Below, in pieces: positions 2,086 through 24,948 of a DNA stretch of 30,885 bases. The DNA lies in assembly GCA_027046625.1 (NCBI GenBank), contig JALTXX010000018.1:1-30885 (forward strand), given 5' to 3'. The position numbers were made by a program, and so were the translations under genes. This DNA is from Candidatus Micrarchaeota archaeon (GTDB taxonomy: Archaea > Iainarchaeota > Iainarchaeia > JAADDC01). Under the pieces are notes generated by a model, which was not told where the DNA came from, did not search any database, and saw only the letters and a list, made by a program, of their open reading frames with translations. The stretch's first letter is position 1; every line of letters starts with the position of its first letter.

Positions 2086-2823
2086 ATGCGATTGCTGGGA
2101 CTATCTTATGAGGGTGTTCACTGGGGTTCTGGAGGATCAAGAGAGGCTCCTTATCATATTTTTACAGCACTAAAAGATCTGGAAGGTTACTCTCTCTTAT
2201 TTGAGAGGGATATAGACTTTGAGGTAATAGGAACGCTTCAAATAGAGGGATATGAGGAGGATGCGATAAATGAAATTGAGAGTGCCGTTACACAGGACAT
2301 AGGAGGGTACATAGGTGGGGATCATTCTATCTCCCTCGGAGTTATAAGAGGGTTGAAGAGATATTGGGATAGATTTAGGGTGGTAATACTGGATGCGCAT
2401 CTTGATTTCCGAGATGTATTTATGGGTAGTAGGTTGAATCATGGGACAGTTACGAGGAGGATATATGAAGAAATTGGAGATGTCACAGTTATGGGTGTGA
2501 GGAATGTTTCAAGGGGGGAGGTTTTAGAGGCAAAGGAGAAGATCCGCTTTGTTCCATACAAGCTCACGCCGCTGTATACAGACACACCCGTATACTTATC
2601 TATAGATATCGATGTATTTGATCCCTCTGAGGCCCCAGGTACCGGAACCCCAGAGCCAGGAGGAATATCCTTTAGGATGTTTCTAAAATGGCTCAGAGAA
2701 TCTTCCTTCCCCCTTATAGCCTTTGACATTGTAGAGGTCTCACCCTCAAAGGATTATTCTCAAAATACGATAAGGCTTGCTGCTAACATCATAAAGGAAA
2801 TAGGTAGCAGATTTTTTGGATAG
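2086..2823 (+). CDS. speB: Agmatinase / ureohydrolase family
   Basis: Motifs GGDHSIS, DAHLD, SIDIDVFDP, PGTGTPEPGG, DIVEVSP. Confidence 0.9.
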   Translation: MRLLGLSYEGVHWGSGGSREAPYHIFTALKDLEGYSLLFERDIDFEVIGTLQIEGYEEDAINEIESAVTQDIGGYIGGDHSISLGVIRGLKRYWDRFRVVILDAHLDFRDVFMGSRLNHGTVTRRIYEEIGDVTVMGVRNVSRGEVLEAKEKIRFVPYKLTPLYTDTPVYLSIDIDVFDPSEAPGTGTPEPGGISFRMFLKWLRESSFPLIAFDIVEVSPSKDYSQNTIRLAANIIKEIGSRFFG

Positions 2824-2893
2824 CCCCGCGGGGATTCGAACCCCGGTCGCGGGATCCAGAGTCCCGCATGCTTGGCCGCTACACCACGGGGCT
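2821..2893 (-). tRNA. tRNA-Gln(CTG)
   Basis: Reverse complement AGCCCCGTGGTGTAGCGGCCAAGCATGCGGGA-CTCTGGA-TCCCGCGACCGGGGTTCGAATCCCCGCGGGGCTA; A1-U72 typical of archaeal tRNA-Gln. Overlaps the speB stop codon. Confidence 0.95.
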
Positions 2894-15041: not shown

Positions 15042-15680
15042 TTATATCCTTATTGCTCCCTCTATGAGAAGGATAGCAACAAGGGTTATTATGACATCTG
15101 CTACAAGAAGATCACCAGGACTTAATATGGCTGAGAATATAAAGATAAATGTGTAGATAATCGGCCGGTTTTTCTCTATAGATTCCCTTGGTAGGAGCTT
15201 ATACCTTATAAGAAGCTTGAGTATAAGGGGGAGGTGAAAGAGAATGTAAAAGATAATAGTAAAATAGGTTAGGAATCCGATCACATCCGTTGGGGTAATC
15301 AATAGCTCTGCCCCCACCAGGGAGGATAGTGTTCTCGCAAGGTAGAACACTACCTGTCCTGATAGATAGAAAGATACAATTACAGAAAGGATGGCCGCAA
15401 CAAAGGAATATATGATATACTTCTTTAGTGTACGTGATTCCTCCTTTGTGAGGGCATCTCTCAACCACCCATAAAACATAAGCAGAAAAGGTGGTATCAC
15501 AAGAATGAGTGCCAGCTTTGCCACAGCATCAAGGTAAAAGGCCATCACATCCCTCACACCAAGGAAGTACAATCCCTTTCCCACCAGAGTAAAGGAGGCT
15601 ACCAACACAACGTACACTAAGATATACATAAATACTCCTTTCAGCACCAATCCCCTTAACTCCTCAATATATCTCCTCAC
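15042..15680 (-). CDS. tatC: Twin-arginine translocase TatC (short/divergent)
   Basis: YIEELR, ALTKEE, FHLPLI, NR...FIFSAILSPGD correspond to TatC motifs; adjacent to tatA. Confidence 0.8.
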   Translation of the reverse strand: MRRYIEELRGLVLKGVFMYILVYVVLVASFTLVGKGLYFLGVRDVMAFYLDAVAKLALILVIPPFLLMFYGWLRDALTKEESRTLKKYIIYSFVAAILSVIVSFYLSGQVVFYLARTLSSLVGAELLITPTDVIGFLTYFTIIFYILFHLPLILKLLIRYKLLPRESIEKNRPIIYTFIFIFSAILSPGDLLVADVIITLVAILLIEGAIRI

Positions 15681-15689
15681 AACAACATT

Positions 15690-16583
15690 TCACCCAACAA
15701 TTATTTTTACATCAACATTACCACTTCCGTTTGATTGACTTGAATACCAATGGTAGTAGAACACTATATCTACCGTGCTAGCTGGAACCGTTGTATCTAC
15801 CATAGACGCGAAAGAGAAATTCCCATCTATATCTGTAGTTGTGCTCCAGTTTGCACTATCGGTAGCAGGTGACCATCCCGCTAGTTTAGTGGTTCTGTCA
15901 TAAGTATTGGCCTGGGATCTTGTGTTGGATACAGGATCTAAAATAAATGGTATGTCCGAGTTCTGCATAAGATCTATAATAGCATAAGCATCTATTCTGA
16001 CAACACTATTAGAACTATCATAGTATATAACAGCGAACCCTATTGACAGCCCATTAGCTGTTTCTAACACACCTGCATTTGTGTAGGAAATACTGCTTGG
16101 GCTTTCTATTGTAACTCTTAAGCTATTTGGAAGATTCCAGCTATTTATATCATTTAGTGGTATACGCTGGCTATACAATCTAACCGTAAGATCTTCCATT
16201 CCATAGGCTAGGGACTTATTTATAGCTATCCTAAGTTTTCTGTCATAACCTTTGTAGCATATGTTGGTGCTTATAGTGGGTGTATAGTTCGTATTTGTTG
16301 GGGTAGATATCCAATAGCTGGCTGGAGAGAAACACGGTGCACTTTCAGTGGTTACGTTCTGGGTCAGTGTCTTCGTTTGGCTTCCATCGGGGCTATATCT
16401 CCATTCATCGATATCCTGTCTGTACCACAGTTTTCCTGGCTCAAGAGCCGGATCCGACGTCAAAGGTTGAAAAACTATACTATCCGGCTTTATATAAACA
16501 GTGTTTTCACCTATCTTCAGGCCTTCCTTTAGCAGATCTTCCAACAACCACTCTGCAAACCTCCGCTTAAGCCATCTTAGCAT
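15690..16583 (-). CDS. Leaderless fibre/tip-like protein with shared N-terminal module
   Basis: N-terminus homologous to 20507-20746; DPALEPGKLWY repeat-type motif; S/T/N-rich beta C-terminal domain. Confidence 0.7.
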   Translation of the reverse strand: MLRWLKRRFAEWLLEDLLKEGLKIGENTVYIKPDSIVFQPLTSDPALEPGKLWYRQDIDEWRYSPDGSQTKTLTQNVTTESAPCFSPASYWISTPTNTNYTPTISTNICYKGYDRKLRIAINKSLAYGMEDLTVRLYSQRIPLNDINSWNLPNSLRVTIESPSSISYTNAGVLETANGLSIGFAVIYYDSSNSVVRIDAYAIIDLMQNSDIPFILDPVSNTRSQANTYDRTTKLAGWSPATDSANWSTTTDIDGNFSFASMVDTTVPASTVDIVFYYHWYSSQSNGSGNVDVKIIVG

Positions 16584-16615
16584 CGTTAAGAATAACCTAA
16601 CCTTCTATATAATTC

Positions 16616-17005
16616 TTACCCTAAACCATTGTAGAGCTTTGTTAATAATTCACAAGGATCTTCTCCCGTGTATGATAGGATTGCCTCCCCCATAGCCCGT
16701 CCCCACTTCTCTCTATCTCCAAACTCCCCACACTCCTTCAAACGTTCCACCAATCCGCCTTTTATAGCCTTGGAGACTCTCTCATATACATACTCAAGAT
16801 CCTTTTCAGGATCTTGTCTGTTTACATAAAAACTAAGCACATAATACATTATTACACCTGCAATATCCCCTACGATCTTCTCCAACTCCTCAAGAAGGTT
16901 CAGAAAGGGTTTCATATCATACTTCTTACCTGTTGTTATCTCCAAAATATAGAAAAACCATCTAATACCTTCATCTCCTTTTACCATACAAACACTTAAA
17001 CACAT
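16616..17005 (-). CDS. Hypothetical protein
   Basis: 129-aa helical ORF in the operon direction; no recognisable motif. Confidence 0.5.
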   Translation of the reverse strand: MCLSVCMVKGDEGIRWFFYILEITTGKKYDMKPFLNLLEELEKIVGDIAGVIMYYVLSFYVNRQDPEKDLEYVYERVSKAIKGGLVERLKECGEFGDREKWGRAMGEAILSYTGEDPCELLTKLYNGLG

Positions 17006-17022
17006 GAGAATATGTTAAAAAT

Positions 17023-17400
17023 ATGGACAGGCTCCACCTCATCATCGGTGGTGTGATCCTCGTATCCATCATTATGGGTATTGTCCTCTTCTCCCAAAGG
17101 GGTTCCACCTCTTCAGAGAAGAATATTCCCATCCTTTCTGAAGACATCATAAGAACCGCTTGTCCGGAAGGGTTTCCAGGATCTCCGTCGTTTATCAGCT
17201 GTGAAGAAGCTGTAAAGACTGCTTTCAACAAGGTTCCCTTTACCGATGTGAGGGCTACCTATTTGACTGCCTGGACAGATGGTAGCCCTGTATACAGGTT
17301 TACCGTGGTGGAAAACAATTATTATCTCTGTATAACGGTAACTGCAAGGGATTCGCCAAAGGTAATAGATGTTTCTTCGGGCAAATGTCCTAAAGGTTGA
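17023..17400 (+). CDS. Membrane-anchored protein with PepSY-like domain
   Basis: N-terminal TM; ISCEEAVKTA...PVYRFTV...VTARD.PKVIDV pattern; 4 Cys. Confidence 0.55.
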   Translation: MDRLHLIIGGVILVSIIMGIVLFSQRGSTSSEKNIPILSEDIIRTACPEGFPGSPSFISCEEAVKTAFNKVPFTDVRATYLTAWTDGSPVYRFTVVENNYYLCITVTARDSPKVIDVSSGKCPKG

Positions 17401-18280
17401 GATCCCACGGTATTCTTTCACTATTCAGCACTATCACCCTTCTTTTATCAAGATATGGGTAGGTATGGGCTAGTCCCACGAACCAGGGTGTGTGAACCTG
17501 AGCCACCCCATGGTAACTATCCCACACTATGGGAGAGGTGAGTATCTCTTCCAACCACTCAAAGGCTTCTGGGTCTATATCCTCCATCACCTTCCTCCAC
17601 TTCTTCCCCACCCTCTTTGTTCCCTTACATCTATGGGAGTGGGGTAAATGAGTCGTCATACGTATGCCAAAATATCTTAACTCTTGGATGGCTTCAGGGT
17701 AGGGATCCGGAATGTATATTACATATTTATCTTCTTCTAATGTCCATCTGTCCTTCTCAAGGACAGGGTCTCCATCATTTTCTGCTGCCTGCCATAGGGG
17801 ATCGTAGAACCCCTGGCTCCATGTATCCATGAAGAATTCTACACAACACTTTGGATAACCCAACATCTCACCTATCTCTATGTGTCCATCCTTTCTCTTG
17901 GATGCCTCTCTAAATCTTTCTCCGTCCTTTGGATCCCTCACAAGAGCCCCATACCAGAAGAACGGCTCCCCTGGTTTGGGAGGAACATGATAGTGAGAAA
18001 AGCCTTGATAGTATGCGCTTTTTGCTATGGGGAAGAAGTATAGCCCATCCCTTTGAATTTGCTCTATGAACTCTGCAAAATTGTTTACATCCACATGCCA
18101 TGTAGCTGCCCTTCTATAACCTCTCTTTACCATTTCGTATTCTGCTCTGTTTGCCATACGAGAGATTCTACCTAACCTTGGTTCCCATACTGCCTTGTAC
18201 TCGGGTCTTCTCCACACAATCCTTGTAAAGTGTTTTATCTCAAAGTCTGGTTTTATTACCGGTGTTTTGCTCTTAAACAT
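17390..18280 (-). CDS. Conserved hypothetical, putative metal-binding partner of the rSAM enzyme (DUF483-like motif)
   Basis: GEMLGYPKCCVEFF and THLPHSHRC motifs; starts 6 nt after the rSAM stop. Confidence 0.65.
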   Translation of the reverse strand: MFKSKTPVIKPDFEIKHFTRIVWRRPEYKAVWEPRLGRISRMANRAEYEMVKRGYRRAATWHVDVNNFAEFIEQIQRDGLYFFPIAKSAYYQGFSHYHVPPKPGEPFFWYGALVRDPKDGERFREASKRKDGHIEIGEMLGYPKCCVEFFMDTWSQGFYDPLWQAAENDGDPVLEKDRWTLEEDKYVIYIPDPYPEAIQELRYFGIRMTTHLPHSHRCKGTKRVGKKWRKVMEDIDPEAFEWLEEILTSPIVWDSYHGVAQVHTPWFVGLAHTYPYLDKRRVIVLNSERIPWDLNL

Positions 18281-18286
18281 ACATAT

Positions 18287-19588
18287 TCACCCGTCAAGGT
18301 GCCTTAAGCTTCCATCTATGTGTTCTACACCATCAGTATGATTGCCTCCAAAGCAGGAACCTCCCCTCGGAGGATTGTCACTGTCTAGGTGTCTTACACT
18401 TCCATCTGTATGCTCCACACCATCGTTGTGTCCACCCCCGCAGGATCCCTCCGCTATTCCATCTAGGTGTCTTAAACCTCCATCAACGTGCTCTATTCCG
18501 TCGGTATGGTTAGTGCTTAATGAACGGCTTGTCTCAAAGGGAAGTGTAGCTTTTACATAGGCCGGTTCTATACCCATAAACCTTAGAACGTTGTCATAGT
18601 AGCTGAAAACTGCCTTCCAAGCAGGACAGTTTGCATCCCTGTTTCTCCAGTCACCGTTTATGGTGGTTGCGGAACATCCACCATAGCAGATAGGGAAGTA
18701 CTTACATCCCCTACATCCCCCATACTCAAATGGTGTATTATACAATACTTCTTCCCTGATATACATTCTCTCCTGTGTTCTTAGCAGAGGTACATGTCTT
18801 TGGCAGTTTGTAACCATCCTATCTCCCTTTATAACATGGGCAGCAGCTGTGTTAAACGGATCACACGGTCTAAAAACACATACCACTTCTTGTCTTCCCA
18901 GGAGGGCGTTCATGATATCTCTGAAGGGAGACCATTGATAGCCGGTATCCAGCATAAACTTTGCAAGCTCTCTGTATACATATGCTAACCTACCTGGCTC
19001 AAGGAAGTACTGCTTTGGCGCAGGGTAGCCAAGAGGATTTAATCTTCCTGTTATCCTTAGCTCTCCTGAAAGCCAGTGTATGAACTTCTTTAGTTTTTCA
19101 AAGCGCTCATCATCACCGGCGTTAAACTTATGTACCACAATAATAACACTGGTTGGTATCTTTTCCTCCACCAATCTTTGAAGATTCTCCAGTACCTTTC
19201 TTGTTTGGGATGGTGGAGCTCTTAGAACATTCAATTCTTCTGGTCCGTCTATGCTCACTCCCACACTAACTCTATACTTTTTGAAAATCTCTATGATGTC
19301 ATCGTCTATGTTTACACCGTTTGTTTGTATTGAAGGGCGCTGTCCTACCTCTACAATTTTCTTAAATATGGCCTCTATATCCTCTTTAGGAAGGGTTAGA
19401 GGCTCTCCTCCGTGTAAAGTGAACACCCCTCCATATCCATTACTATATTCCGGCAATTTTGCCGTTTCTTCAATGGTATTCAAAATCCATTCCAGATCAT
19501 AGTCCTTTTCCCTCAACAATCTGTTCTGATAACAGTATGCACAAGAAAGGTTGCATGCCAGGGTAGGTTTTATGAGTACTGTCACCAT
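18287..19588 (-). CDS. Radical SAM/SPASM-domain maturase with a His-x-Asp repeat tail
   Basis: CNLSCAYC, HGGEPL, IQTNG, VSIDGP; SPASM-type Cys (C..C, NC, CRGCKYFPICYGGC, NC); SD AGGAGGTG. Confidence 0.9.
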   Translation of the reverse strand: MVTVLIKPTLACNLSCAYCYQNRLLREKDYDLEWILNTIEETAKLPEYSNGYGGVFTLHGGEPLTLPKEDIEAIFKKIVEVGQRPSIQTNGVNIDDDIIEIFKKYRVSVGVSIDGPEELNVLRAPPSQTRKVLENLQRLVEEKIPTSVIIVVHKFNAGDDERFEKLKKFIHWLSGELRITGRLNPLGYPAPKQYFLEPGRLAYVYRELAKFMLDTGYQWSPFRDIMNALLGRQEVVCVFRPCDPFNTAAAHVIKGDRMVTNCQRHVPLLRTQERMYIREEVLYNTPFEYGGCRGCKYFPICYGGCSATTINGDWRNRDANCPAWKAVFSYYDNVLRFMGIEPAYVKATLPFETSRSLSTNHTDGIEHVDGGLRHLDGIAEGSCGGGHNDGVEHTDGSVRHLDSDNPPRGGSCFGGNHTDGVEHIDGSLRHLDG

Positions 19589-19609
19589 TCAACACCTCCT
19601 ATGAAATGT

Positions 19610-20497
19610 TTATATGGGCTGATCGTTGTGCACGTCGTTATGTGAAGATGTGTCAGAGTGTGTATCGTTCCAGTCAGACCAGTTTGCATGTGAATCTGAG
19701 TGAGAGTCTGAGTGGGAGTCTGAGTGGGAGTTTGGCCAGTCAGACCAGTCATAATGTGAATCTAGATGGTCCGAATGATTTGAATGTGGTACATCATCAT
19801 GAGGGGTTGCATTAGCATGTGGCTGGTCACTGTGGTTAGTATGATCGTAGTGCGGACTATCAGCATGTATTGTATTACTATGATCGCCCCAATCTGTGTG
19901 TATAGCATCATTATGGATCCAATCTAAATGTTGTGACGAATCGCTATAGTCTGACCAATCTCCGTGAGAGTCCGTATGAAAGTCAGCATGATCACTATGA
20001 TCTCCATGAGGTGTATCTCCATGGTCTGTCCAATCCCAATGTAAAAAGTCGCTATAGTCGGACCAATTATAGTGAGTGTCGGAGTGGGTATCGTTCCAGT
20101 CAGACCAGTTTGCATGTGAATCTGAGTGAGAGTCTGAGTGGGAGTCTGAGTGGGAGTTTGGCCAGTCAGACCAGTTGGAGTGGTTGGCCCAGTCGGAGTG
20201 AGTATCTGTGTGCCATTCTCTAAGGTTTCCTGTGCCTGTAACAAACTTTATGTAGTTCCCTTCCAACCAAAGAGATCCTGGTTGGCCAGATGAAGTGCCA
20301 AGAGAGACGGTTGGCAGCCTTCTTATGGCTCCGTATTGATCAATATAGTACAGGTAGTTTCCGTCTATCCAGAGGGAGCCTGGCTGGCCAGAAGAGGATG
20401 AAGACACTAATTCGCCTTCCTGGGAACGAATGTTTCCATTAGCATCTACGTATTTCAGTCTTGTTCCTTCTACCCAGATGGATCCTGGCAGTGGCAT
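19610..20497 (-). CDS. His/Trp-x-Asp/Asn repeat protein (putative rSAM substrate)
   Basis: Three N-terminal PGS(I/L)W..G....G..R repeats, then ~200 aa of (H/W/Y)-x-(D/N) triplets. Confidence 0.85.
   Translation of the reverse strand: MPLPGSIWVEGTRLKYVDANGNIRSQEGELVSSSSSGQPGSLWIDGNYLYYIDQYGAIRRLPTVSLGTSSGQPGSLWLEGNYIKFVTGTGNLREWHTDTHSDWANHSNWSDWPNSHSDSHSDSHSDSHANWSDWNDTHSDTHYNWSDYSDFLHWDWTDHGDTPHGDHSDHADFHTDSHGDWSDYSDSSQHLDWIHNDAIHTDWGDHSNTIHADSPHYDHTNHSDQPHANATPHDDVPHSNHSDHLDSHYDWSDWPNSHSDSHSDSHSDSHANWSDWNDTHSDTSSHNDVHNDQPI
19662..20175. repeat. Identical 88-nt direct repeat (19662-19749 = 20088-20175) containing 12-nt tandem units
   Basis: Both copies encode WSDWPNSHSDSHSDSHSDSHANWSDWND. 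Confidence 0.9.
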
Positions 20498-20506
20498 CGT
20501 ATATTA

Positions 20507-20746
20507 TTAGGGCACATACTTATTAGTGCCTACCGGTACCTGCAAGCCGTTGATATTCTTTATGACAGCTGTTCCCCTACCATCGATGTAATTTGCATAT
20601 ATCAGAATACCGCCGTTAACATCTATGTGGTCCGGATAGATCCTTACACTATGCTGGCCAATCCTAAGGTTTATTACCCTTAATTCCTCCACAGTAACAT
20701 CGGAAAGCAACCAGTTAACCAACATTTGTTTTAGTCTCTTCAACAC
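20507..20746 (-). CDS. Small beta-rich fibre adaptor-like protein
   Basis: N-terminus shared with 15690-16583; ends LQVPVGTNKY; GGGGTGA SD. Confidence 0.7.
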   Translation of the reverse strand: MLKRLKQMLVNWLLSDVTVEELRVINLRIGQHSVRIYPDHIDVNGGILIYANYIDGRGTAVIKNINGLQVPVGTNKYVP

Positions 20747-20750
20747 CCTA

Positions 20751-23420
20751 TCACCCCCTTCTAATTTCTCCCCTTATCCACAAGTTTCCTTTATCATCTA
20801 TTCTAAGAACAGGTTCTCCCCTTTGGTTTAATAGCACAATACTATTCCCATCCTCAACAAACCTAAAACCGTTCTTGAAGACAAGATCTCCAGATTGAAG
20901 AATACTAGCCCTCACAACATTGGCATTTAGTTCGTTCACCTCTGACACATTTGAAGGATCTAAGTAGAAGGAGGTGTTATCACTATCATTATACCGCGGG
21001 GCCTTTACCACCTTTGAAGATACCACCTCTGTGGTAGTTTCTGAAAGTGCTGAATCTCCTAGGGTACGCGTACCAACCCAGATTGGTATCTTTCCAGTGG
21101 TTCCGGATCCAAGGGCATCGTCCGTGGGGTTTGTATCTACTGTAGTTGGAACGTATTGGGTTCCATTCCACACCAAAGCTTGACCTGCAGACGGAGCGGT
21201 AGGGGATACAGGTCTTCCCTGTATTTTTGCAACTGTGGGGTTGGGATACGTACCAGATAGGTCTCCTCCTGCAGATTGACCCTCGTTTACAAACCTACCA
21301 TCAAAGGCCGATCCTGTAGCGTATTGATTGGTAAGTACAAGGTTTCCATCTATATCTGTAGAGAAATATGTTGGGTTGTACTTGAGAGAGATGGATGCAG
21401 AGGTTCCCGTAACAGATACAGAGATAGGATCTGTGGAAGTTATGGTGGTTATACCATTGTCAACTCCACACAAAACATTACCTGAAGCGTCTGTGTATAG
21501 TTTTGAGCAGTTTGTTTTTGTGGTTAGACGCAGATTAGAAAGGACGGAAGTGCCTGCAGGGTCTACATAGAAAGAGGTGTTGTCTCTGTCCTTGAACTGG
21601 GAGGCTGAAATACCTGGTCCGTGAACTTCCACACCGGCGTTGAAGTCTCCTGCATAGTTTATTATCAATTTTGTGGGATAGGGTACAAGGGCTCTTTTCC
21701 AATTATAATCTCCCACAACAGTTCTGGCCATCTTAAAATCGAATCCTACTCTCACTTCCCCAGACTGATACGCACCAAACCTTTCATTTCCGGAGGCGTC
21801 TGTAACTTTAAGGCTTCCGTTTACCTCAAGGTTGGCTGTTGGGTTTGTGTTGTTTATACCTACCTTGTTTGCAAGAACGGAAAGGGTACTTGTGTTAGAG
21901 GGTTGGATGTAAACCGGGCCTGCCTTAATATAAACAGGGCTCTGGTACCTCCAATGATCTGTTATATAGAGGTAGTCTGCAGAGTCGTTGCCCCACTCTA
22001 TGTACAAATGCCCATCGGATTTGTCTATACCCCAGGTTCTCAGATAGGTGGGAGGAAGATAGCCAGCATCTCTAGTGGTATATATGAGGCCCGTAGATAC
22101 TAGATCTCCCCTAACATAAGTAGTACCATTTACATCAAGAGTATACTGGGGCGTAGAAATGTTTATACCGAGGCGTTTGTTCGTGTTATCCCAGTATAGG
22201 TTAGAGGCTGATACTGTGGAGGGGGATGTAAAGTAGGGTATGTAGTTCGTGGTGCCGGAGCCTGTAATATCGTTGGAGGGTGTGGTATCCACCACTGTAC
22301 ATGAAATGGTACCGTCAGATGGGTTTACTGCTGTAAGTGCCTGCCCTGATGGACAAGAAAGGGTGGAGGTTATATTCATCTCTAAGGATCCTGCATTTAC
22401 CTTCAAGCCTCTCCCAACACTTAAACCTATGGTTATATCTGAGGAAAGTGCTCCTCCACCTGTTAGAGGTGACAAAACTGATATGGTTCTTGTCTGGGGG
22501 ACATACTTGCTTGAGAGGGGCGTACCTCCCTCCACAAAGGAGGTTGCATACACATTGTTTGCTCCTATGTCTCCAGAGACATGTAACTTATAAGAAGGTG
22601 ATAGATTCCCCACACCTATATTTCCAGAGGTACTATCCAGCCAGAAGTATGCACCGCCTGCTCCCACATAGAGAGGAATTGGAGTACCAGTATTTGCCCA
22701 AGATCTAACCGTAAAGGACCCAAAACCTTCGTCGTAAGCTACATCAAAGAATTTGTTTGGAATAGAGGAAACGTTCATCCTTATACCCTCTGACGTTCTT
22801 GTAGAATGTACATTAGTATCTATTAGGAGAGAGCTCTTCAAATGGAGAGAGTCCCAGGCTGTTGGAAATCCTACGGTCATCGGACCTAGGACGGAAGTGC
22901 CTGCAGGGTCTATATAATAGGAGGAGTTTGACATATCTTCTAACCTTTCTGCTAACACTGTATTGGCAGAGATATTAGCATGCTGGTTAGTTGTGTTATT
23001 CCAGAACACCACATAGTCCTTGTTTGTAACAATACCTACGTGGGTAAATGGTTGGGTAGATTGGATGTAGATGGCGTCAGTTGCCTCGTTTATGTTGGTA
23101 GTTGTTGTATCATCTGGTCTGGTGTTAATGGTAAGGGTGGACATCATACTGTAATTCTGGAATTCGTTAAATTCGTAGGATCCTACTACATTTTCCCTCA
23201 GTTGGATGTCTAAAGTGCTATATGTTCCTGTTACACTGGCGTCTGACGTTCCTGCGTTGGAGAATATGTCGGATCGTTTTAGAACCTCTATATTGTTTAT
23301 GAAAACACTACCACCGTTTACATAAATACTACCGTTTACAACGTTAAGGTCCCTGTTCTCTATAAGAACACCTGCTGCCATTGCTATAGGTAGTAAGAGG
23401 AGTGCGAGGATGTGTCGCAT
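20751..23420 (-). CDS. Secreted mosaic fibre/adhesin (tail-fibre-like repeats)
   Basis: Sec-type signal; 3x (V/L)G(I/V)...P...L.V.G, 3x NxS(F/Y)Y(V/I/L)DP...S, 2x VDT.P..D..GSGTT..IP; GGDLSGTYPNPTVAKIQG motif. Confidence 0.75.
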   Translation of the reverse strand: MRHILALLLLPIAMAAGVLIENRDLNVVNGSIYVNGGSVFINNIEVLKRSDIFSNAGTSDASVTGTYSTLDIQLRENVVGSYEFNEFQNYSMMSTLTINTRPDDTTTTNINEATDAIYIQSTQPFTHVGIVTNKDYVVFWNNTTNQHANISANTVLAERLEDMSNSSYYIDPAGTSVLGPMTVGFPTAWDSLHLKSSLLIDTNVHSTRTSEGIRMNVSSIPNKFFDVAYDEGFGSFTVRSWANTGTPIPLYVGAGGAYFWLDSTSGNIGVGNLSPSYKLHVSGDIGANNVYATSFVEGGTPLSSKYVPQTRTISVLSPLTGGGALSSDITIGLSVGRGLKVNAGSLEMNITSTLSCPSGQALTAVNPSDGTISCTVVDTTPSNDITGSGTTNYIPYFTSPSTVSASNLYWDNTNKRLGINISTPQYTLDVNGTTYVRGDLVSTGLIYTTRDAGYLPPTYLRTWGIDKSDGHLYIEWGNDSADYLYITDHWRYQSPVYIKAGPVYIQPSNTSTLSVLANKVGINNTNPTANLEVNGSLKVTDASGNERFGAYQSGEVRVGFDFKMARTVVGDYNWKRALVPYPTKLIINYAGDFNAGVEVHGPGISASQFKDRDNTSFYVDPAGTSVLSNLRLTTKTNCSKLYTDASGNVLCGVDNGITTITSTDPISVSVTGTSASISLKYNPTYFSTDIDGNLVLTNQYATGSAFDGRFVNEGQSAGGDLSGTYPNPTVAKIQGRPVSPTAPSAGQALVWNGTQYVPTTVDTNPTDDALGSGTTGKIPIWVGTRTLGDSALSETTTEVVSSKVVKAPRYNDSDNTSFYLDPSNVSEVNELNANVVRASILQSGDLVFKNGFRFVEDGNSIVLLNQRGEPVLRIDDKGNLWIRGEIRRG

Positions 23421-23451
23421 CGTTCTATTGATGTTTTTGTGGATTATAATG

Positions 23452-24732
23452 TTATCGGATTGTCACATTACCCAACAAAAGGTTTGAGTCGATAATGTGC
23501 ATGTCAAGGGGGGATGTACTTACTATGTTAATGTCGGATAGTGTATAATCGCTGTTTAGCGAGTATATACCTGTAGTTGAGGTATTTAAACGAAGAGAAG
23601 CTGAGGAGATAGATACATTGGAGGAATTTCTTATTATAACACCGTAAGGATCATTAGTTTCAAGATAGAAGTTAGAAATTCCTACATTTGAAGATTCAAG
23701 GATTGCTATAATAGGATATACCCTCTCCATTGTGGATCCTCCCGCATCTATGGAAACTCCTCCTGTATAATCCTTTACCCAGATGGAAAGGGGGAGGAAA
23801 GGTGATATGGAGGAGAGGGAAGACGGGCGGAAGAGATACATCTTCCTATCACCATATACTATATCTCCAATGGAAAGTGAGAAGCTGAAGGTGAAGGGGT
23901 CAGAAATATACATAACATGGTTCACCTCATTGTTCTCAACAGATGTAATAACCACATTAGTAAGATTGTTCACAAGGAAGGAGGTGTCCACATTCCTTAT
24001 CCTGCATCTTTCTATGGATATATTCGATCCCCCGTCAAAGAGGAAAGTTGTTTCAGACCCGGAACCCCTCAGTGTATGAAGCATACAATCTAACGTTATT
24101 CCGTTGTAATCCTTCCAGAGGTTAATGCACGGATCTCTATCTATTACAATATCTGTAAACATAAGAACTCTTCTGTCAGGCCCAGCGTATGAATCGAGTG
24201 TGGCTTGGCACTGTCCGCATGTATAACAAAAGTATATCTCTCCTAGAGGCCAGCTAATAGGCTTTAGATCCGTCCAAAGCTCCACACCGTTTATGAAAAC
24301 AGTTACTCTATATGGAAGAATGTTTTCATCAGGTATGGGAACTATAGTGTACAATCTATAGTTTATCTTAGGCAGAAAGGCTGAGGACGCATTATCCACC
24401 GCAAACTCCGCCTCCATCACCTTTGTAGCATTTCCTTCCCTGTATAGAATGACTCCTTGTATGGGGTATCTATAGTAAAGAGGGAGTGTTCCCACGTTTT
24501 CTATGATTATATCTACGTATAGCAGAGTGTTTGTATCCCTTCTTATGCTATAGCTTCCTCCGAGAGGGATAAGATATTGTTTGGTTTGTTCGGAAAACTT
24601 CTTTACGTATATATCAAGCTCTTCTGTTTGCTCGGATAGATAGGAAGATAGGGCAAGATAAAGCTGATACAGCACCACTAACGAAAAGGAGAGGACAAGG
24701 AGTACTGTTATTATGTCTGTTTGAAATCGCAT
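23452..24732 (-). CDS. Membrane-anchored (class III-like N-terminus) protein with a right-handed beta-helix
   Basis: MRFQTDIITVLL... anchor; IENVG; CYTCGQC...ITLDC..HTLRG followed by N-x-S-I beta-helix repeats. Confidence 0.6.
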   Translation of the reverse strand: MRFQTDIITVLLVLSFSLVVLYQLYLALSSYLSEQTEELDIYVKKFSEQTKQYLIPLGGSYSIRRDTNTLLYVDIIIENVGTLPLYYRYPIQGVILYREGNATKVMEAEFAVDNASSAFLPKINYRLYTIVPIPDENILPYRVTVFINGVELWTDLKPISWPLGEIYFCYTCGQCQATLDSYAGPDRRVLMFTDIVIDRDPCINLWKDYNGITLDCMLHTLRGSGSETTFLFDGGSNISIERCRIRNVDTSFLVNNLTNVVITSVENNEVNHVMYISDPFTFSFSLSIGDIVYGDRKMYLFRPSSLSSISPFLPLSIWVKDYTGGVSIDAGGSTMERVYPIIAILESSNVGISNFYLETNDPYGVIIRNSSNVSISSASLRLNTSTTGIYSLNSDYTLSDINIVSTSPLDMHIIDSNLLLGNVTIR

Positions 24733-24768
24733 GAGAAAATAGATGGTAGAGCTATATTTTATGGGTTA

Positions 24769-24842
24769 CGGGCCCGGGGGGATTCGAACCCCCGACACCC
24801 CGGTTAAGAGCCGGGTGCTCTACCTGGCTGAGCTACGGGCCC
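24769..24842 (-). tRNA. tRNA-Lys(CTT)
   Basis: GGGCCCGTAGCTCAGCCAGGTAGAGCA-CCCGG-CTCTTAA-CCGGG-GTGTCGGGGGTTCGAATCCCCCCGGGCCCG. Confidence 0.96.
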
Positions 24843-24948
24843 ATATACAGCTATCTAACTGATTGAAGAGACAAGGGTTTTTGTTAGTGTGGGTGGAAAG
24901 GTAACACTTAAAAAGGGGTTTGTTTTGATAGTTAGCGAGGTGTGAGGG

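Follow-up and report, generated by a model that had tools for sequence, protein, structure and literature searches.

The window analysed here, the whole contig JALTXX010000018.1 of 30,885 nt, belongs to a Candidatus Micrarchaeota archaeon whose genome of 652 kb is 94% complete. A cassette of three co-oriented genes lies on its minus strand, from 20497 to 17390. The first gene encodes a protein with a long C-terminal tail of His-x-Asp and related triplets (the HxD protein hereafter), the second a radical S-adenosylmethionine (rSAM) enzyme with a SPASM domain and the third a DUF483-like protein. The subject of this work is the first of these proteins, which is probably a substrate of the second. 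The features of the cassette are as follows.

19610-20497, minus strand: gene of the HxD protein, 295 aa; the end coordinate takes in the stop codon (open reading frame list, translation and homologues)
20216-20497, minus strand: N-terminal domain of the HxD protein, residues 1-94, with three repeats (sequence and profile)
19613-20215, minus strand: C-terminal tail of the HxD protein, residues 95-295 (201 aa), with 52 aromatic-x-Asp/Asn triplets (translation)
19650-19749 and 20076-20175, minus strand: direct repeat of 100 nt, in frame, the two copies 98% identical and 426 nt apart
18287-19588, minus strand: rSAM/SPASM enzyme, 433 aa (Pfam Radical_SAM, 8.9e-21)
19532-19555, minus strand: CX3CX2C motif of the radical SAM cluster (Cys12, Cys16, Cys19), invariant in the homologue alignment
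18290-18511, minus strand: C-terminal tail of the enzyme itself, residues 360-433 (74 residues), three repeats with nine HxD motifs
17390-18280, minus strand: DUF483-like protein, 296 aa, third gene of the cassette (Pfam DUF483, 1.3e-4, under the cut-off)

The HxD protein and its family

Counted with overlaps, the tail of the HxD protein contains 52 triplets of the form [HWYF].[DN], and this recount agrees with the figure of about 52 that a sequence-only reading of this DNA had reached by hand. Asp or Asn stands at position +2 after all 37 His and after 13 of the 16 Trp, as that reading had noticed for almost every His and Trp; the same holds for two of the five Tyr and for neither of the two Phe. 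The 201 residues consist of 42 Asp, 38 Ser, 37 His, 16 Trp, 16 Asn, 13 Thr, 8 Ala, 8 Pro, 5 Tyr, 4 Gly, 4 Ile, 3 Leu, 3 Gln, 2 Phe and 2 Val. The composition bears out the earlier remark that Lys, Arg and Cys are missing, and Glu and Met are absent as well. When the same 201 residues were shuffled 10,000 times, a mean of 17.2 triplets was obtained (standard deviation 3.0), with a maximum of 29 against 52 in the real tail. The spacing is equally specific: the offset of +2 gives 52 pairs, compared with 3-27 for every other offset between -4 and +4.

A part of this number is the product of duplication. The 100-nt direct repeat copies about 33 residues and about 10 motifs of the tail, so that about 42 motifs are to be counted as independent. 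As this recent internal duplication shows, the tail region grows by repeat expansion. The complete 652-kb genome has 3403 open frames with a length of at least 60 codons, and runs of at least six such motifs occur in this one alone.

The N-terminal domain is of a different nature. Its repeat unit reads GSxW(V/I)(E/D)Gxx(L/I)xY(V/I)DxxG, with GS.W at residues 5, 40 and 74. A profile of the family gave a weak repeat match to the PQQ-like propeller blades of the designed protein Scone-R, with a summed E-value of 2.7e-5 and insignificant values for the single stretches. This hints at beta-rich blades in the N-terminal domain of HxD proteins. At the other end, the tail closes with H-x-D-x-P, of which H290, D292 and P294 are invariant in two family alignments. 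No family in Pfam, NCBIfam or PHROGs was matched by the HxD protein of the window.

Relatives are numerous. A word-indexed search returned 97 of them, and an exhaustive profile search 945 cluster representatives at E <= 0.001, of which 502 remain at <= 1e-10 and 79 at <= 1e-30. The proteins found by the profile search are about 110 to 1640 aa long, and many members of the family carry an added N-terminal extension starting with MAWTAPRTW. Three blade-like N-terminal repeats are followed by a tail with 6-84 motifs (median 28), when the tails are delimited by motif density. Seven long relatives match no Pfam family, and one weak minor-tail match was obtained with PHROGs among ten proteins of the family. 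The ESM Atlas model of one homologue is of low confidence (predicted local distance difference test, pLDDT, 0.51); its N-terminal 99 residues alone resemble a viral cluster, with a template modeling score (TM) of 0.42.

How strictly the rule is kept across the family depends on how the tail is defined. In 129 distinct whole sequences, 3596 of 4121 His (87%) have Asp or Asn at +2. Tails delimited by motif density, on which an earlier family statistic was based, are partly circular for His. The statistic relied on instead takes as tail all residues more than 25 positions past the last N-terminal repeat, independently of any motif, which gives 120 proteins and 17,387 residues. In these tails, Asp or Asn follows at +2 for 2870 of 2938 His (98%), for 384 of 985 Trp, Tyr and Phe (39%) and for 781 of 13,224 non-aromatic residues (5.9%). 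This corresponds to an odds ratio of 10.2 for aromatic against non-aromatic residues; a formal p-value would be overstated, as the sequences are related. Among the 120 relatives, only aromatic residues stand in for His before x-Asp/Asn. Furthermore, the relatives share a column identity of only about 23-30%, and yet the rule is kept by 98% of their His. The distance from one motif start to the next is variable: 3, 4, 5 and 6 residues were counted 482, 1187, 1387 and 226 times, respectively, in the density-defined tails.

Many members also have an insert in the middle of the tail, with at least two Cys and with loops rich in Gly, Pro and Gln, for example H.DC.......H.CD (proteins P0004, P0007, P0031 and P0088, and locus L048, 11398-12294, minus strand). 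The HxD protein of the window lacks this insert.

The cassette, its enzymes and its viral context

The gene of the rSAM/SPASM enzyme follows the HxD gene on the same strand and begins 21 nt downstream of it. In addition to the three Cys of the radical SAM cluster, the SPASM cysteines 237, 242, 262, 292, 295, 301, 305 and 321 are invariant among 26 homologues of the enzyme. The best NCBIfam matches of the window enzyme are DynA, AmcB, TIGR04083, anSME, Clo7bot, YhhB and GrrM/OscB, all far under their cut-offs. All 26 homologues match the DynA, AmcB, YhhB, anSME, TIGR04083 and FxsB models, with the best E-values for DynA, AmcB and YhhB. The nearest sequences in the PDB are anSME, matched along the complete core (residues 3-330) at 3e-10, and, at 2.6e-7, the triceptide synthase ChlB. 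The enzyme also matches a phage family, phrog_1802 (1e-32).

The enzyme itself ends in motifs of the kind found in the HxD protein. Its repeat can be written as H-T/N-D-G-x-E-H-x-D-G-x-x-R-H-L-D, and the tail contains two extra Cys. At least two C-terminal HxD motifs, typically HGDxPHGDxHGDHTD, are present in 30 of 34 homologous enzymes from archaea, a Thermus phage, a Limnochordales genome and viral contigs. Two further radical SAM genes of the archaeal genome (G000:C8:1983-2510, minus strand, and G000:C8:9715-10023, plus strand) have a core identity of 30-31% with the enzyme; the first is a frame of 401 aa.

The third protein reaches 22.4 bits with PF04467 (DUF483), over residues 132-157 only, which lies below the gathering cut-off of 25 bits. 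Several viral homologues pass PF04467 at 26-27 bits and many database homologues are annotated with it; the window protein is therefore taken as a divergent member of DUF483. Two stretches are conserved, GYPxCC...F...W...D and H-L-P-(C/H)-S-x-x-C, and C145, C146, H211 and C218 are invariant in the alignment. In most viral loci, the DUF483 protein is fused to a C-terminal class-I SAM methyltransferase, the nearest PDB entries of which are the plantazolicin peptide N-methyltransferases BpumL and BamL (1e-8). A PDB profile search with the DUF483 alignment gave matches to this fused methyltransferase part only. Within the phylum, a DUF483-like gene was seen in four of 215 genomes, that of the window included, many of these genomes being incomplete. 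Weaker DUF483-like genes occur in the genomes G090 and G093 among three or four small radical SAM genes of 283-310 aa with C-terminal Cys motifs (L049, 6939-10385 and 13730-14605; L050, 1627-3366). These loci were considered as copies of the same cassette and rejected, because their small rSAM genes are different and an HxD protein is missing; they apparently represent a separate DUF483-rSAM system.

The association of the three genes is best seen in viruses. By means of peptide patterns of the HxD family alone, made from a narrow alignment, 36 viral loci were found, 35 records of which could be searched for radical SAM. HxD proteins without an rSAM gene, whose common occurrence the sequence-only reading had named as speaking against its interpretation, are not frequent. 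A Radical_SAM match is present in 32 of the 35 records (above the Pfam cut-off in 30) and in all 11 records that are at least 90% complete. The three records without a match are fragments of 4.3-6.4 kb, and two of the 32 matches, both at contig ends, are incomplete. With the window proteins as tblastn queries, the enzyme was found in 31 and the DUF483-like protein in 30 of the 36 viral loci; all three cassette genes are present in 29 of the 36 and in the Thermus phage Cumys. Clustering of the 31 viral enzymes leaves 26 groups at 90% identity and 16 at 50%, so the pairing is not one lineage counted repeatedly.

Gene order was compared in 31 loci with both the HxD and the rSAM gene (28 viral loci, Cumys, a Limnochordales genome and a sister archaeon). 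The two genes are on the same strand in all of them. The stop and start codons overlap in 15 loci, the gap is at most 100 nt in nine and 100-1000 nt in three, and the order is another one in the remaining four. The genes just upstream of the cassette in viral loci match the PHROGs central tail fiber J (3.8e-90), "tail protein and host specificity" and tail fiber. In cellular genome contigs, a very narrow pattern returned a single locus, in a metagenome-assembled genome of Limnochordales, a result that says little about the spread of the cassette in cellular genomes.

Among cultured viruses, the enzyme was found in three Thermus phages. In Cumys, the order is baseplate genes, a tail collar fiber protein, Cumys_13, an "rSAM protein" and a "DUF483-domain protein". 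Cumys_13 is a clear member of the HxD family, with 343 aa and all of its 54 His in HxD/N. Over 79% of its length, Cumys_12 has an identity of 37% with the window enzyme, and Cumys_11 is the protein annotated with the DUF483 domain. In the Thermus phage phiLo (178 kb; L042, 3815-4944 and 10810-11083), an HxD-rich open reading frame with 18 of 18 His in the motif lies about 4 kb from the enzyme gene and on the other strand, and the cassette has therefore been rearranged there. Fragments of IS605-type transposases lie directly upstream of the rSAM gene of phiLo.

The cassette itself has already been published, as an association without explanation. The three genes of the window are those which, in the available part of PMC11437467 (2024), are described for Cumys and phiMa as an "rSAM module" of unknown function, with similar loci in prophages; the module is phage-borne there, in contrast to the archaeal chromosome of the window. 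Of the first gene, that part of the paper says no more than that its product has an unknown function, and it leaves the His-x-Asp repeats unmentioned. In the literature beyond it, nothing was found on the repeat grammar, on a triceptide-type fiber substrate, on the HxD tail of the enzyme or on a chromosomal copy in archaea; subscription papers and supplements, which lay outside this search, may list His-x-Asp precursors. Three points go beyond what the sequence-only reading had described: the tail belongs to a 295-aa protein in fiber position with a folded N-terminal domain, the enzyme carries nine HxD motifs of its own, and the cassette has a DUF483-like third gene.

Proposed chemistry and its alternatives

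The +2 grammar of the HxD tails is that of the triceptides, in which three residues form a cyclophane, and metal binding fits it poorly. The tail is likened to these precedents because the spacing is strictly i/i+2, position 3 is Asp or Asn, and only aromatic residues replace His. Triceptide synthases are rSAM/SPASM enzymes that join the aromatic ring of position 1 to the C-beta of position 3 (PMC11002830, PMC11499958). According to the available parts of the same two papers, OscB links Trp-C7 to the C-beta of Asn or Asp, YxdB links Tyr-C3 to the C-beta of Asp, and HaaB, YhhB and HtkB link His-C2 to the C-beta of Ala, Arg or Lys. A link of Phe-C4 to Asn or Ser is also known, and with HtkB the place of His can be taken by Phe or Trp.

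The likeness of the cassette to these systems (XncB, OscB, MscB, YxdB, HaaB, YhhB, HtkB, ChlB) lies in the aromatic-x-position-3 motif, in an rSAM/SPASM enzyme with CX3CX2C and SPASM cysteines and without a recognizable RRE domain, and in the adjacent substrate gene. Moreover, AmcB, YhhB, GrrM/OscB, XyeB and FxsB are among the best NCBIfam matches of the enzyme, although under the cut-offs. The sequence-only reading had suggested that the +2 rule is imposed by a triceptide-like enzyme rather than by composition. This suggestion gains support from the co-occurrence of rSAM genes, from their common strand with the HxD gene and their closeness to it (overlapping or within 100 nt in 24 of 31 loci), and from the exclusively aromatic substitutions, which suit a cross-link between an aromatic ring and a C-beta better than a metal site.

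On the whole of the analysis, we consider it moderately probable that the HxD protein, a member of a widespread virus-borne family of proteins in tail-fiber position, is the dedicated substrate of the adjacent rSAM/SPASM enzyme, with triceptide-like cyclophane formation as the most likely chemistry. The enzyme would cleave SAM, and the 5'-deoxyadenosyl radical would abstract a hydrogen from the C-beta of the Asp or Asn at position 3. The C-beta radical would then attack the ring of the His (at C2), Trp or Tyr at position 1. As many as about 50 sites of a chain would undergo this step, each with a loss of 2 Da. The expected product is a rigid, acidic poly-cyclophane rod, resistant to heat and proteases, at the distal end of the fiber. 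The DUF483-like protein, with its conserved Cys/His site, would be an obligatory third partner with an accessory role, and the methyltransferase fused to it would perform a second tailoring step in most viruses. The HxD tail of the enzyme is probably a tether or a pseudo-substrate. The analysis shows the statistics of the motif, the family, the cassette with its setting in tail modules and the class of the enzyme; the action of the enzyme on the tail, the chemistry of the cross-links and the parts played by the DUF483 protein and the enzyme tail are inferred.

Several observations weigh against this interpretation. The window enzyme reaches 97 bits with the DynA model, the cut-off of which is 450, and anSME scores nearly as well (76 bits, cut-off 349). 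The named models of enzymes that form three-residue cyclophanes (3-CyFE), i.e., AmcB, YhhB, GrrM/OscB, XyeB and FxsB, give 40-82 bits against cut-offs of 310-450, and the 26 homologues likewise stay under all of these cut-offs. Judged by its sequence, the enzyme belongs to the SPASM class of peptide and protein maturases, and to no particular chemistry or named family within it. The substrate differs as well. Instead of a small precursor peptide with leader and core, the HxD protein is a whole protein (180-1640 aa in the family) without a leader, with a folded N-terminal domain and a place in a virus tail module. The triceptide precursors in the available part of PMC11499958 hold one to a few motifs, compared with the dozens in HxD tails. 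The cassette has a DUF483 partner and HxD motifs on the enzyme, and, unlike in clusters of RiPPs (peptides made by the ribosome and modified after translation), neither a protease nor an exporter was found in it by Pfam and PHROGs scans. A link between His-C2 and the C-beta of Asp is absent among the precedents in the available parts of PMC11002830 and PMC11499958. The aromatic substitutions could reflect packing and not enzyme specificity, and His and Asp in an i/i+2 pair also make good ligands for metals. Phage fibers with HxH iron sites are known (PMC11705849), and the authors of PMC11437467 suggest, in the part available, an unknown DNA modification for the rSAM module. Finally, a signal peptide is not recognizable on the HxD protein of the window, which leaves a cell-surface role in the archaeon weak.

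The same pair of enzyme and substrate might be engaged in another chemistry: C-N or C-O links, links between the chains of a fiber, epimerization, or oxidation or other functionalization of the Asp C-beta, with the methyltransferase adding a further step in most viral cassettes. The enzymes that are near in score are diverse in this respect, with oxidation by anSME, C-C and C-N links by DynA, and thioethers by enzymes of the QhpD/PapB type, and no model of any enzyme reaches its cut-off. Among them, anSME shares its architecture with the cassette enzyme, for which it gives the best PDB match along the complete core, and its substrate is a protein and not a small peptide. It oxidizes one Cys or Ser of a sulfatase motif, and such a motif is absent from the HxD protein. 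From the fusions of DUF483 with a methyltransferase it can be seen that many loci have at least one additional step. However, the strict i/i+2 grammar of aromatic residue and Asp/Asn, in which Trp, Tyr and Phe replace His, is that of the triceptides, and epimerization or simple Asp oxidation needs no aromatic residue two positions upstream. Another chemistry on the same motif is quite possible, but is considered less likely.

The main alternative to a modified tail is a fiber segment that binds metals through unmodified or lightly modified His and Asp, the rSAM and DUF483 proteins serving some other purpose in fiber assembly. His and Asp, at i and i+2, point to the same side of a beta-strand and are ligands of the classical kind, the tail is very acidic and without Lys or Arg, and the Cys/His site of the DUF483 protein could handle a metal. 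The documented case is the needle of the long tail fiber protein gp37 of phage T4, a fiber protein with repeated pairs of His and a second ligand at i and i+2 that form iron sites (PMC11705849). In the available part of that paper, however, the second ligand is His, a fiber has 6-7 sites and no dedicated rSAM enzyme is described, whereas the HxD family has Asp or Asn in this place, in dozens of motifs that are irregularly spaced and far denser. A metal-binding fiber would leave the near-obligatory, translationally coupled rSAM gene and the HxD tail of the enzyme unexplained. Moreover, the window motif is H-x-D/N and not HxH, and His is replaced in the family by Trp, Tyr and Phe and not by Cys, Glu, Gln or Asn; Trp and Phe are unable to ligate metals, but triceptides accept them as ring donors. 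A metal-binding segment is, on this evidence, quite improbable.

It is highly improbable that the rSAM and DUF483 proteins form a nucleic acid modification module, as speculated for the Thermus phages, and that the HxD protein is a mere neighboring tail gene. In favor of this, cyanobacterial homologues of both enzymes lie beside deazapurine DNA-modification genes, and DUF483 is found fused to methyltransferases (PMC11437467, available part). On the other hand, the best family matches of the enzyme are all peptide or protein maturases, and the fused methyltransferase is closest to peptide N-methyltransferases. In 15 of 31 loci, the rSAM gene overlaps the stop codon of the HxD gene, inside tail modules. 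The motif of the substrate recurs at the end of the enzyme, and an HxD-rich open reading frame was present at every two-enzyme locus examined, phiLo included (the cyanobacterial loci are outside this set).

That the tail is a disordered low-complexity spacer, shaped by composition and repeat expansion alone, could be suspected from the recent 100-nt duplication and the low-confidence ESMFold model of the homologue, but it can be set aside as implausible, since the +2 rule is kept by nearly all His of poorly conserved relatives and by a sister-genus orthologue of only 37% identity, and same-composition shuffles never come near the observed count.

If the HxD tails are indeed joined into cyclophanes, the rSAM chemistry of peptide natural products would serve in the construction of virus particles, where it would act on whole proteins and on as many as about 80 sites of a chain. 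No earlier virion protein would be cross-linked through carbon-carbon bonds, and the HxD protein would be by far the most heavily modified substrate of the triceptide type, and RiPP enzymology would gain a leaderless, highly processive pair of enzyme and substrate. It would also be a new way of hardening receptor-binding phage fibers, which fits the hot-spring habitat of the Thermus phages, and a function would be found for DUF483 and for the published "rSAM module". Thermus thermophilus HB8 with the phages Cumys and phiMa is a harmless cultured system that makes this proposal directly testable.

The archaeal chromosomal island

The window contig encodes MCM, CDC48, the ribosomal proteins S3Ae and S15, CDP-archaeol synthase and TFIIE-alpha. 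These genes identify it as part of an archaeal chromosome. A TatC-like gene on one side and a tRNA-Lys gene on the other enclose an island of about 9 kb that holds the cassette. Further features of the island and of the contig are as follows.

15042-15680, minus strand: short TatC-like gene of 212 aa near one of the island's boundaries (well under the NCBIfam TatC cut-offs; also present in the sister-genus genome G236)
20507-20746, minus strand: open reading frame of 79 aa directly upstream of the HxD gene (69% identity in the sister-genus locus)
20751-23420, minus strand: protein of 889 aa with a hydrophobic N-terminal segment (small PHROG matches, residues 397-438)
23452-24732, minus strand: protein of 426 aa with an N-terminal hydrophobic segment (weak beta-helix match PF13229, 1.8e-4, under the cut-off)
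24768-24843, minus strand: tRNA-Lys(CTT), boundary of the island on the opposite side (its counterpart at the corresponding site of G236 is 93% identical)
2821-2893, minus strand: tRNA-Gln(CTG), the other tRNA gene of the contig, outside the island

The same island occurs between the same flanks in a sister genus of the same family (G236). Identities between the two are 67% for the DUF483-like protein, 61% for the enzyme, 69% for the 79-aa open reading frame, 37% for the HxD protein and 93% for tRNA-Lys. In the HxD protein of the sister genus, 28 of 33 His are in the motif. A tRNA gene at the boundary is compatible with an old integration site. Genes for capsid, terminase, portal and integrase were not found among the island open reading frames, from 15690 to 24732, with Pfam, NCBIfam and PHROGs. 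A complete integrated provirus was considered and set aside in view of the lack of these hallmark genes, the cellular nature of the contig and the presence of the same island and flanks in another genus. The archaeal cassette is read as an old acquisition from a virus, now vertically inherited.

What the cassette does in the archaeon can be stated only tentatively. It may serve a cell-surface fiber, because its location is chromosomal, its neighbors include large proteins whose N-termini are signal-like, and capsid and terminase genes are missing from its surroundings. The 889-aa protein is probably a fiber or surface protein of the same island, and the large island proteins with signal-like N-termini may be surface fibers that work together with the HxD protein. 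A broader picture joins both settings: viruses of bacteria and archaea would turn the distal part of a tail fiber into a poly-cyclophane rod, with dozens of carbon-carbon staples from His, Trp or Tyr to Asp or Asn in a single chain, by means of a dedicated rSAM enzyme, and tiny episymbiotic archaea would inherit the cassette vertically in their chromosome, beside giant secreted proteins, which suggests a virus-derived, enzyme-hardened surface fiber, for example for attachment to the host cell. This picture is possible, but we regard it as rather doubtful. The syntenic chromosomal copy in two genera of tiny archaea nevertheless raises the question of whether a viral fiber has been taken over by cells.

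The 889-aa protein is partly conserved in G236, as a protein of 1209 aa (L048, 12562-16191, minus strand) with a similar N- and C-terminus. The big proteins of the island share a C-terminal end of the form DGN..VLLN..G.P...ID..G..WIRG.I.

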